From a virus (Duplodnaviria > Heunggongvirae > Uroviricota > Caudoviricetes), in IMG/VR virus record IMGVR_UViG_2850796239_000006: a stretch of 52,929 nt of DNA; one strand, 5' to 3'. The position numbers and the translations under genes were made by a program. Under the pieces are notes generated by a model that did not search any database, was not told the DNA's origin, and saw only the letters and a list, made by a program, of their open reading frames with translations. Of the stretch, positions 2,308-4,749 are shown piece after piece. Every line of letters starts with the position of its first letter. Within the stretch, counting starts at the first letter, position 1.

Positions 2308-4749
2308 TTAAAAATCAGCCTGACTCGGGATCAGTTTTTGCCAGATAGCTGAAACGTATTTTGCTTGGTAACGAGCGTCATCAAGTGCATTATGGCGCTC
2401 ACCTTCGAATGGAATAGCCGTTCTGGCATCGAAGTCTATGGCTTTCCCCAGCTCAACGATTGTGCGTACATCGCGATCGTTGTAGTAACGCCACGGGCAG
2501 GGGATCCCCTGCCGTTCGTATGAACGGCGCAAAATCGTGTTGTCGAAGTTGGCTCCATTTCCCCAGACCTGAACAAAAAATTCACCGGAGTTTTCGTCGA
2601 TAAATTCCCGCAATTGTAACAGTGCATCATCTAACGGGATTTCATCGGTCATAATGGCAGATCACGCTTCGCGTGATTGCTTAAGCCACCATTTAATGGT
2701 GTCCCGATCAATGACTCCGCCAGCAGTTTCCAGATCGATAGTCTTACTAAATTCGGGTCCCATATCTCCGGTTTGCGGATCGAAAAATATTGCATCTATT
2801 GAGATGATCGGGGCATCAGGATTTTTTCCCATGGTTTCAAGGTCGATCATTAGATGGTCACACGTCCTGCTGGTGGATGTGATTTCGTGATGACCATTCA
2901 CCGTAATTAAGGGATCTGCCGTCTCGCCAGTTTTACTATCGCTGGCGTGGTCCTGAGCGCTGCCAGCATTCTCCTTGTGTGGATGTTCAGCGCCTTCCAT
3001 TTCCTCCGGATCATTTTCCTGAACTTCAACCTGATTCTCTTCATCGAATGTTTTCTGGTATGTTGCGTCGTCCATCACCGCGCCACAATCAGGGCAGTTG
3101 CCGCCACCGCTCTGACCGCAGGCGGTGCAGACTTTTTCCGGTTCCTGTTGCGCTACTGGTTCGGATTGTTTCGTTTCTGGCTCGTTTTGTAACGCATTTG
3201 GGCTGTTTTGTTCCGCTTTTTGGTCGTTCCGTTCCGATTCATGCTGGTTCTGGTTCACAGAATCGCGAGTCTGGATCCCCTTGACCCATTTCGGATCATT
3301 AGGGTCGCTAATCCCCTCAACAAATTCACCACGCGATACAGCAAGTAACTTATCGGCGTCAGGCTGGCTGATATTGGCTGCCTGCATAATTTTGTTTACT
3401 TCGTCAGCGGTGACTTTTACTTGGTTAGCGGAACTCACCTGCGACTGAGCATCCAGCGACTGCGCGTTCTGGCAATGTTCAGTTGTATCCGGTTCCATTG
3501 TTTCAGTTGTTGCCTGTTCACCTGCCATTGCGTCAGATGGTTGTGGTTTTTCTTCTTCTGTTTCACGCTCAGTAACCACCTCGCGGTTAATTTCTTCCAG
3601 GATATCTTTTTCCGGCGTATGCCGGGCAGCTGTGAGAGTTTCCTTGCTGGGGTTCTCGTGATCAGTTTCCGTCAAATAGGCGTTGATATACCCCTGAAGG
3701 CGTCCCGGGTAGTGATAAAATTCAGGGTGTGCGCTTCGGATAAGTGCAAAAATAGCGGCGCGGGAATAGTCCAGAATACCCGGGGTTGCACGAAGTGCTG
3801 CGGACCATTCTTTGAACGGACTTTCTTTTTTCAGGACTACTTCTTTTGCGCGACGATAAACGCTGCCCGGAATTTCATAAATATTAAAATCCATCGGAAG
3901 TGTGGCTGCTGCAATCTCCACATCCAGTGTGTCGAGGGTGTGTACTAAATTCGGATTGCGATCGGTTTTGTTCCCACCGCCAGCATTAGCACCGGAAGCC
4001 GTGCGGGTGATGCGTGAAACACGATTTCCTTTCATCCACTCTTTTGTCAGCAGACCCCGATCAGTGTAGTCAGCGTCCAGGTATGCTTCGAAAAAAGCAG
4101 TTATTAGTCCCAGGTCTGAATTACCAGGATTAGGGAAAACTTTGTCAGTGTCACGAACCAGTTTGTGGAGGTCGCGAATCTCCAGCGAGTCGAGCAGACT
4201 GGTTTTATGCGAAATAGCCAGGGCAGTAACAGCCGGTAGTTCTTCAGCCCGTGCAATGTGTAATGCCTGGAGTTCGTCGCGTGAAACGTGCGTTACTGGT
4301 TTTTCGCTGCCGTGTTGAGCAAGCCAACGAATGGGCAGTTCCTGACCGGAGACAGGTAGAAGCATGCTCTCCTCAATCTCAGTCATGTCTTCGCCGTTGA
4401 TGTTGGTATTATCAGTGCTGGCTGATTTGTCCTGAACAGAGGGGGAAGGGCCGATAAATGTCATTGTGATGCCATCTTTCCCGCCTTTTTCATAGCGGTT
4501 GCAGAATTCAGTATCAAACACGCCTTCTGGCGGAAGGTCGTCAACAACGGGCAAATTGACGCGGACGGGTTTTTTAAAGTCGTCTTCATCATAATCGTTG
4601 TCATCCATTGCGGTAATGCAGCGGGAGATTGCAACAGATAATTTTTTTGCTGTAGTCCAGTAAAAACCACCTTTAATTCCTAGGCGTTTTCTTACTTTGT
4701 CATTTTTTGCTTCGCAATATAGTGCAAATTCTTCTTTATCAGTGCTCAT
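2308..4749 (-). pseudogene. DnaQ-like 3'-5' exonuclease (lambdoid early-left 'exo' gene) interrupted by an in-frame TGA
   Basis: ORFs 2662..4749 (695 aa) and 2308..2652 (114 aa) are in the same frame, separated only by TGA at 2662-2664 plus three codons; the exonuclease motifs (DLET, GNGANFD, H-x4-D) span the stop. Confidence 0.65.

Follow-up and report, generated by a model that had tools for sequence, protein, structure and literature searches.

The prophage exonuclease gene of Shigella boydii ATCC 9905 is interrupted at codon 696 by a TGA that, judged against its orthologs, is a genuine nonsense allele (Gln696>opal), confined to ATCC 9905 among the collections searched. The overall reading that we favor, and consider likely, is that of a real pseudogene allele whose two adjacent substitutions have a template-switch origin. 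The gene lies in a 52,929-nt stretch of DNA from this strain (CP026875.1), the whole of which is called the window here.

Organization of the interrupted exonuclease gene

Two ORFs of 695 and 114 aa share one minus-strand frame on either side of the stop (Table 1), the next ATG after which is found at 2650-2652. Combined, they comprise 2442 nt, or 814 codons (813 sense codons and a stop), and they align without gaps, at 99.8-99.9% nucleotide identity, to intact 813-aa E. coli genes that carry the PGAP labels 'exonuclease' or '3'-5' exonuclease'; in this alignment codon 696 is the sole internal stop of the gene. The arrangement is not a chance pairing of two ORFs, and its gap-free colinearity with the intact orthologs bears out the preliminary description, which had seen here one gene cut by one in-frame TGA.

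Table 1. Coordinates of the interrupted exonuclease gene and its parts within the window
Feature	Position	Strand	Remark
Whole disrupted prophage exonuclease gene	2308-4749	-	aligns without gaps to intact E. coli genes of 2442 nt
Upstream 695-codon ORF: RecE-like N-terminal region and Exo I	2665-4749	-	2662-4749 including the stop
Premature opal stop TGA, codon 696	2662-2664	-	ancestral codon CAA (Gln)
Tandem substitution CA>TG, gene-sense strand	2663-2664	-	C>T at 2664, A>G at 2663
Ser-Ala-Ile codons TCT GCC ATT between stop and ATG	2653-2661	-	ancestral residues 697-699
Downstream 114-codon ORF: ancestral residues 700-813, with Exo II and Exo III	2308-2652	-	
PF16473 (Rv2179c-like / T4 DexA-like) DEDDh exonuclease domain	2341-2856	-	interrupted by the stop
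PF06630 Exonuc_VIII (RecE N-terminal) region	4183-4581	-	Pfam match
Inverted repeat, perfect, with 7-bp stem and 3-nt loop (gene-sense strand: ATCACGC-GAA-GCGTGAT)	2661-2677		

Once the stop is repaired, PF16473 covers residues 632-803 of the protein as one domain, at 223 bits against a Pfam gathering cut-off of 27. In the window this match is broken between profile positions 68 and 77 (of 177), and the 695-codon ORF retains 64 residues from the start of the DEDDh domain. The exonuclease motifs straddle the stop, as had also been described: Exo I (D635 and E637, within the DLE of residues 635-637; 2839-2847) lies upstream, and both Exo II (GNGANFD, around residue 735) and Exo III (HNALDD, residues 786-791) lie downstream. 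The repaired C-terminal domain matches T4 DexA (PDB 8kel, E = 1.4e-7) with conserved Exo motifs. T4 DexA and the E. coli protein EcD, the 'HREX' exonucleases, are of the same PF16473 DEDDh family, and EcD, a DexA homolog, reportedly degrades 5hmC DNA and confers protection against T4 (PMC12153337). T4 DexA, of which EcD is described as a homolog, is a stand-alone protein of 227 aa, whereas in the window gene the domain is fused to a RecE-like region of ~630 aa and broken by the stop. That region was compared with RecE, the exodeoxyribonuclease VIII of the Rac prophage (NF007259 / PF06630), which occupies the same place in the lambdoid prophage early-left operon. The NF007259 model, 877 positions long, matches residues 1-616 with its positions 1-603 at 942 bits, which is below the whole-protein cut-off of 1269. 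The C-terminal nuclease part of RecE (604-877) is unmatched, and the DEDDh 3'-5' exonuclease domain stands there in the window gene. By its profile matches, the gene product joins a RecE-like N-terminal region of ~630 residues to a DEDDh 3'-5' exonuclease domain of the DexA type. The intact protein possibly has an EcD-like function, which we regard as a lead only; no PADLOC defence-system model matches the gene.

Alleles at codon 696 and the authenticity of the stop

The preliminary description had proposed a single TGG>TGA change, and had anticipated Trp or another sense codon at this site in orthologs. The orthologs do possess a sense codon, but it is CAA (Gln) everywhere, and TGG was discarded as the ancestral codon, with no Trp or TGG at the site in the sampled loci, the E. 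coli records or the protein representatives. An exact 61-mer with CAA occurs in 3,226 complete E. coli records, and its counterpart with TGA in 0 E. coli records. Unselected loci drawn from IMG/VR, metagenomes and GTDB also have CAA in 242 of 243 cases, as do all close relatives (98.4-99.9% identical), and Gln is found in 116 protein-cluster representatives, Trp in none. A different S. boydii strain supplies one of these Gln representatives, and its contig (L272) has CAA at the site. An apparent protein variant ending in ...KQSREA (P0115) was rejected, as it merely reaches a contig end inside the CAA codon. The ortholog of E. coli strain SCU-105 (WP_139496770.1; NZ_CP051738.1) stands at a locus of the same order (mtfA, serU, integrase, DUF4224, exonuclease, ydfD, dicB), is also 813 aa long, and represents a gene found in hundreds of E. 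coli genomes. Its nucleotide identity to the window gene is 99.8%, with 5 differences in 2,442 nt of which two are the tandem change, and rises to 99.88% once the stop is restored to CAA; it has CAA (Gln696) and encodes one continuous protein, with G560 and G652 where the window has Asp. Since the ancestral codon is CAA, the lesion comprises two adjacent substitutions, CA>TG, and both changed bases are private to the window in a comparison with six E. coli relatives.

Other alleles at this codon are rare. A survey of 5,426 E. coli genomes and the whole of IMG/VR yielded no TGA allele outside ATCC 9905, nor was there one among the first 120 metagenome matches listed. TAA occupies the same codon in the ompW-site paralog of three Japanese E. 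coli strains (WP4-S17-ESBL-08, KGu016 and NR329) and in one metagenome contig, and CGA occupies it in a 90%-identical paralog (L267). The ompW-site paralog has 823 codons, is 95.5% identical to the window gene over the 3' half, and belongs to another prophage at another integration site; PGAP annotates its rare TAA alleles as pseudogenes with an internal stop. TAA and CGA are alleles of distant paralogs, and no intermediate allele was found in close relatives.

An error of sequencing or assembly, with a sense codon in the true sequence, can hardly be credited. The homopolymer indels that the preliminary description claimed elsewhere in the window would make such an error more plausible, but the lesion at codon 696 is a dinucleotide substitution, not an indel. 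Moreover, a second deposited assembly features the identical TGA: an 11-kb contig (L266, IMG genome 2534681697) is 99.99% identical to window positions 1-7523, with 1 mismatch in 7,523 nt that falls elsewhere than the stop. This contig is most likely from the same strain, ATCC 9905, and its sharing of the TGA while differing at one base elsewhere suggests independent data. GenBank lists the exact 695-aa product for S. boydii ATCC 9905 as EFW55075.1, and among ~15 billion proteins it is alone in its cluster. The separately deposited contig and the recorded product accord with the earlier view of a genuine mutation rather than a sequencing artefact.

We also weighed whether the stop could be functional, either by programmed recoding of UGA (selenocysteine or read-through) or as the boundary of a split gene whose 114-aa part is re-initiated and reassembles with the first; this we judge extremely unlikely. 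An ATG 9 nt past the stop could conceivably allow some termination-reinitiation, folding predicts an RNA hairpin 17 nt downstream (z -2.4), and a family of 114-aa proteins with the same limits exists (phrog_8783), which the exact 114-aa protein, present on 159 contigs, matches end to end. However, only one strain has the TGA, the coding sequence that contains the downstream hairpin is common to the CAA orthologs, the catalytic DEDDh residues are divided over two polypeptides, and inspection of the sequence ahead of the ATG of the 114-aa ORF (GCGAAGCGTGATCTGCCATT-ATG) revealed no Shine-Dalgarno-like motif. Selenocysteine or other recoding was rejected because the ancestral residue is Gln in the orthologs, not Cys or Sec, UGA/Cys is not conserved, and a search of Rfam with positions 2300-2900 returned no family at gathering score and no SECIS or recoding family, its sole match at E <= 1 being a sub-threshold snoRNA on the other strand. 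The 114-aa ORF was likewise rejected as a separate gene, since the upstream frame is open in 9 of the 9 other contigs examined that are annotated with this product, where the gene is intact or meets a contig end or an N gap. The preliminary description had named as the opposing case orthologs that end here ahead of a separately initiated downstream gene. In substance no such orthologs were found: they do not regularly end at codon 696, and only the rare TAA pseudogene alleles of paralogs do.

A quasi-palindrome and the origin of the tandem substitution

The ancestral codon lies within a quasi-palindrome, ATCACGC-GAA-GCGCAAT, in which 5 of the 7 positions are paired and the two mismatches are adjacent. 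The CA>TG change, confined to one arm, mends both mismatches and converts the quasi-palindrome to the perfect inverted repeat of Table 1. At the center of this repeat, CGCGAAGCG contains the GCGAAGC mini-hairpin, which is extra-stable with a Tm of 76.5 C (PMC13037366). DNA folding yields -2.7 kcal/mol (z +0.25) for the ancestral 31-mer, AAGCAATCACGCGAAGCGCAATCTGCCATTA, and -8.7 kcal/mol (z -4.3) for its mutated counterpart. Among the 21,969 possible tandem substitutions in the gene, 103 (0.47%) produce a stem that runs for 7 bp or more without a mismatch and takes in both bases, a figure that is post hoc because the palindrome was spotted after the data were seen. On the strand bearing the GCGAAGC mini-hairpin the mutations fall in the 3' arm, which is exactly where an intramolecular model requires them.

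Template-switch mutagenesis at quasipalindromes is established in E. coli (PMC7202029), and we infer that CA>TG probably arose in one event of this kind, a replication template switch within the quasi-palindrome. A nascent strand of gene-sense polarity would have copied ...ATCACGC-GAA-GCG, whereupon its 3' end would have folded back on the very stable CGCGAAGCG mini-hairpin. The polymerase would then have used the 5' arm, not the template, for the next bases, writing TG instead of CA and making the inverted repeat perfect. Known template-switch mutations at quasipalindromes (Ripley 1982; the thyA hotspot and the lacZ QP5/QP6 reporters of Lovett; PMC7202029) are likewise multi-base, confined to one arm and such as to perfect the repeat. 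The window allele differs from those reporters in being natural and recognized by comparison, in its short 7-bp stem nucleated by GCGAAGC, and in its nonsense outcome in a prophage gene.

The same allele could have been reached by two independent, sequential point mutations and no template switch, through CAA>TAA and then TGA, or through CAA>CGA and then TGA; we consider this unlikely. Both intermediates are found in nature, TAA in the ompW-site paralog (L004-6) and the metagenome contig (L210), and CGA in the 90%-identical paralog (L267), and these single-step alleles in distant paralogs make a two-step path chemically and selectively possible. On this path TAA>TGA would be neutral, and CAA>CGA would be a tolerated exchange of Gln for Arg, the residue that T4 DexA has at the aligned position. 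Each step is, moreover, a transition. Transitions are the commonest substitution class, and as both changes are of this class, a direction 'toward the palindrome' cannot be told apart from ordinary mutation bias. Against two steps, CAA is retained in all close relatives and in the other S. boydii strain, and with ~5 differences in 2,442 nt the chance of two being adjacent is ~0.008. The changed pair is also exactly the one that perfects the hairpin. CA>TG is the only adjacent pair among the 12 window-private differences in 5.65 kb, and the remaining 10 private changes, G>A in 9 cases, include neither C>T nor A>G (sense strand).

The private changes themselves exhibit a strand bias, in that G>A prevails on the sense strand. 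In 9-23 kb, clusters of mosaic recombination (13.7-15.3 kb) confound the polarizing of strain-private mutations.

It is very improbable that the stop came by short-patch gene conversion from a paralog, as yet unsampled, that had TGA beforehand; this would in any case only shift the mutation's origin to another gene copy. The gene family has up to 6-9 copies per E. coli/Shigella genome, and mosaic recombination patches are found elsewhere in the prophage, both of which speak for such a transfer. However, the same strain alone supplied a TGA allele in the E. coli genomes, IMG/VR and metagenome matches described above, and paralogs differ at about every 22 nt, yet the flanks of the stop are unchanged, with no further change within 130 nt on either side.

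The other alleles at codon 696 invite a wider reading. The TAA alleles place a nonsense codon at the very same position, in the same quasi-palindrome, and their single substitution, C>T, corresponds to the first of the two changes that perfect the palindrome. Somewhat doubtfully, the GCGAAGC-nucleated quasi-palindrome may be proposed as a recurrent hairpin-templated nonsense hotspot, with TAA, CGA and TGA all partial or complete products of template switching. No sequence with the left arm reciprocally corrected (ATCACGC>ATTGCGC, or either single step toward it) turned up in IMG/VR, which therefore lends the hotspot no extra support, and more than 3,200 genomes retain the unperfected quasi-palindrome; the site is not a strong hotspot. 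Were the hotspot reading true, codon 696 would be a built-in weak point, allowing repeated inactivation of a DexA-like exonuclease that is possibly anti-phage.

Prophage context and meaning of the allele

As read from the sequence, residue 695 is the last before the stop, and the break falls within the catalytic domain. The exonuclease activity has presumably been lost and the gene would be a pseudogene, because the DEDDh motifs are split over two ORFs, the second of which is without a ribosome-binding site of its own. The host element is a lambdoid prophage integrated at serU, defective through IS66-family insertions and an inversion; the gene itself is very common in E. coli. A literature search on S. 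boydii ATCC 9905 returned nothing relevant. Decayed prophage genes are abundant in Shigella genomes. The stop is one more lesion in an already broken prophage, as is usual for Shigella, and is biologically ordinary.

For annotation, the 695-aa and 114-aa products held in databases are fragments of one 813-aa exonuclease, with Gln as the residue at the break. For mechanism, the allele would provide a clean natural case of a multi-base mutation that perfects a quasi-palindrome centered on the GCGAAGC mini-hairpin. The presence of the same quasi-palindrome in thousands of E. coli genomes, together with a second independent nonsense allele at this codon, makes this a convenient natural site for the study of template switching outside engineered reporters. 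If the intact protein is an EcD-like anti-phage exonuclease, the allele would also mark the loss of a defence gene. For biology at large the stop is of little consequence, and constitutes a small mechanistic curiosity.

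A nonsense mutation that divides the exonuclease domain

At the break, the minus strand of the exonuclease gene reads ...AAG CAA TCA CGC GAA GCG TGA TCT GCC ATT ATG ACC...; the TGA (2662-2664) closes a 695-codon ORF, three codons follow (2653-2661), and the ATG at 2650-2652 opens a 114-codon ORF with the frame unchanged. Both ORFs and their spacer total 2442 nt and align with zero gaps to intact 2442-nt E. coli genes, which PGAP labels 'exonuclease' or '3'-5' exonuclease'. The preliminary description of two same-frame ORFs parted by a TGA and three codons is thus accurate in every detail, as is its placement of exonuclease motifs on both sides of the stop. 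When codon 696 is repaired, the protein features one complete PF16473 domain (see table). In the window this domain is interrupted between profile positions 68 and 77 (of 177), such that the 695-aa fragment keeps the Exo I acidic pair (D635, E637) and the 114-aa ORF holds the GNGANFD and HNALDD motifs.

The gene belongs to the PF16473 DEDDh family and is a near-identical orthologue of an 'exonuclease' that is very common among E. coli prophages. The gene is not RecE, since that model is matched over only its N-terminal 603 of 877 positions, below the cut-off. The closest solved structure by sequence is phage T4 DexA (PDB 8kel, E = 1.4e-7; PMC12153337), which matches the C-terminal domain. EcD (HAK9828821.1), an E. 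coli DexA homologue, is reported to degrade 5hmC DNA and to guard against T4 (2025; PMC12153337), and may provide a lead to the function of the intact domain. PADLOC has no model matching the gene.

The same TGA is found in a separately deposited IMG/VR contig of 11,081 nt (L266, isolate genome 2534681697), which matches window positions 1-7523 with a sole mismatch at 6891. This mismatch suggests that L266 is not a copy of the window's record, and the strain-private stop suggests that both derive from the same strain. Among about 15 billion proteins, the 695-aa product is alone in its cluster. It is identical to EFW55075.1, titled 'enzyme; Degradation of DNA [Shigella boydii ATCC 9905]' in GenBank, and is encoded on CP026875.1 (GCA_002950355.1, 5.16 Mb) and one further contig of 10-20 kb. 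The TGA in L266 and the cluster of one together indicate that the stop is real and, among the collections searched, restricted to ATCC 9905, upholding the earlier view of a genuine nonsense mutation of substitution type rather than an artefact.

The 114-aa ORF is annotated as a separate protein on 159 contigs, and the PHROG family phrog_8783 has the same limits. In each of the nine other contigs examined that carry this annotation, however, the reading frame continues open upstream, either because the gene is whole or because of a contig end or an N gap. Orthologues that end at the stop and precede a separate gene, the arrangement against which the nonsense reading had been set, were therefore not found in these contigs. 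An independent 114-aa gene is rejected, and the database entries are annotation by-products. No Shine-Dalgarno-like motif precedes the start of the ORF in GCGAAGCGTGATCTGCCATT-ATG. Recoding of the UGA is likewise rejected: the TGA is unconserved, the ancestral residue is Gln, and no Rfam recoding element was detected at the stop. A predicted downstream RNA hairpin falls within coding sequence common to orthologues with CAA at this codon. The gene is most likely a pseudogene, with its truncated 695-aa protein predicted to lack exonuclease activity; pseudogenization by substitution was correctly anticipated.

The prophage setting

A lambdoid prophage is integrated at serU, and its early-left arm makes up the left end of the window. 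The two IS66-family copies (2.74 kb; 99.85% identical to each other) flank a 13.5-kb segment carrying lysis genes, the Q antiterminator, rusA, hokD, ydaT, cro and cI, whose orientation is the reverse of that in intact E. coli relatives. An IS-mediated inversion splitting ydfA produced this arrangement, and the prophage around the exonuclease gene is already defective.

Features of the window and protein domain matches, the latter computed with codon 696 repaired
Feature	Position	Strand	Remark
mtfA	1-837	minus	chromosomal flank
serU, tRNA-Ser(cga)	892-981		
Tyrosine integrase	1009-2046	minus	
DUF4224 gene	2046-2249	minus	
Exonuclease gene	2308-4749	minus	
114-aa ORF	2308-2652	minus	
DexA-matching domain	2341-2856		C-terminal domain
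ydfD, dicB, ydfC, ydfB, ydfA			after exonuclease gene in left-end order
IS66-family element	6401-9136		
Inverted segment	9137-22611		
tRNA-Arg(tct)	11568-11644		in prophage
CAT-anticodon tRNA	11746-11821		in prophage
IS66-family element	22612-25347		inverted copy
PF06630 (RecE N-terminal region)	residues 57-189		
RecE-model match	residues 1-616		score under curated cut-off
PF16473 (Rv2179c-like 3'-5' exoribonuclease)	residues 632-803		one complete domain; 223 bits

Several further features were observed. At the integrase 3' end (window ~1051) there is a single copy of a 13-bp unit that the relatives carry duplicated in tandem (GAAAATATTCCAG then GAAAATATTCCAA), which alters only the C-terminus (...ENIPSNSKCDFCH vs ...ENIPGKYSK; 345 aa instead of 341 aa). 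The CAT-anticodon tRNA is called tRNA-Met by ARAGORN, and its E. coli counterparts tRNA-Ile or tRNA-Met by PGAP; the relatives likewise have such tRNA genes beside the Q antiterminator gene. Nine of the ten isolated private changes across 1-5652, scored against six E. coli relatives, are minus-strand G>A, equivalent to plus-strand C>T (5535, 5263, 3071, 2795, 2365, 867, 630, 577 and 308), with none in reverse, and span both the prophage and the mtfA flank. Within the inverted segment, isolated private changes are again mainly plus-strand C>T (6 vs 1), the inversion notwithstanding. Strand-asymmetric cytosine deamination, or defective repair in the lineage, may explain this bias.

Ancestral codon and origin of the stop

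The closest orthologue, an intact E. coli gene (L001; 5 differences in 2442 nt), has CAA at codon 696. Among complete E. coli records, 3,226 contain an exact match to a 61-mer centred on this codon with CAA in place, and none contains the TGA version. When the codon was left free and its flanks held exact, CAA occupied 120/120 IMG/VR loci and 119/120 metagenome loci (the other being TAA) among the matches listed, and 3/3 GTDB representatives. Gln is present in 116 of 120 protein-cluster representatives, one from another S. boydii strain whose contig (L272) reads CAA, and Trp or Arg in none of the 120. The sense codon expected in orthologues is thus present, but it is Gln and never Trp. A TGG>TGA origin is ruled out, and in place of the one change first proposed, the orthologue codon identifies the lesion as a tandem double substitution, CA>TG.

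Apart from TG in the strain itself, an exhaustive IMG/VR scan for all non-ancestral dinucleotides returned a single CG, which gives CGA (Arg) in a paralogue of 90% identity (L267, 10531-10568). In three Japanese E. coli genomes (L004-L006, 3001-3061) the codon is TAA in a paralogous prophage exonuclease at ompW, annotated 'internal stop' by PGAP, and one metagenome contig (L210) also has TAA; the ompW-site paralogue is an independent lineage, being just 95.5% identical over the 3' half. TGA, TAA and CGA were the sole non-ancestral alleles found, and every one raises hairpin complementarity. In its derived form, ATCACGC-GAA-GCGTGAT (2661-2677), the inverted repeat pairs perfectly over 7 bp around a 3-nt loop, whereas the ancestral ATCACGC-GAA-GCGCAAT bears exactly two adjacent mismatches, and both substituted bases are those complementing the opposite arm. 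DNA folding of the 31-mer gives -2.7 kcal/mol for the ancestral sequence (z +0.25 vs shuffles) and -8.7 kcal/mol for the derived (z -4.3, no shuffle as good), with TAA and CGA intermediate. The repeat centre, CGCGAAGCG, includes the GCGAAGC 'mini-hairpin', which has a Tm of 76.5 C and withstands 7 M urea without unfolding (PMC13037366). A GATC (Dam methylation) site at 2660-2663, within GCGTGATCT, is another product of the CA>TG change; the ancestral GCGCAATCT has none.

Mutations that perfect quasi-palindromes, often multi-base, are a recognised product of replication template switching, in which a nascent strand that has stalled folds back on itself and takes its other arm as template (PMC7202029, citing Ripley 1982, Viswanathan 2000, and Dutra and Lovett 2006). 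The mutation fits the sequence-level definition of a quasipalindrome-associated mutation. We propose that one such switch turned CA into TG: the nascent 3' end would have folded on the GAA mini-hairpin and copied the opposite arm. An intramolecular switch demands that the mutation fall in the 3' arm of the strand carrying the mini-hairpin, and this is exactly where it lies. Of the 21,969 tandem substitutions possible in the ancestral gene, only 103 (0.47%) give a perfect stem of 7 bp or more, with a loop of 3-10, that includes both bases, a figure to be read with the palindrome having been spotted post hoc.

Two sequential point mutations, with no template switch, find support in both changes being transitions and in the existence of the single-step alleles, TAA and CGA, in distant paralogues. 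Against this, no other two of the 12 window-private substitutions in 5.65 kb (vs six E. coli relatives) lie next to each other, and the types of the stop-codon pair (sense-strand C>T and A>G) are absent from the other ten, 9 being G>A; with five differences in the gene, adjacency would arise by chance with a probability of about 0.008. We consider the two-step route unlikely, and gene conversion from an unseen donor very improbable. Strong hotspot behaviour is not seen at this site: the imperfect repeat persists in thousands of genomes, and left-arm correction was not found in IMG/VR. Weighing this retention and the transitions, a single template-switch event probably made CA>TG. The stop is itself an ordinary finding, a strain-only nonsense mutation in a decaying Shigella prophage; as a tandem change perfecting a hairpin, it would represent a tidy natural instance of a known mutational mechanism.
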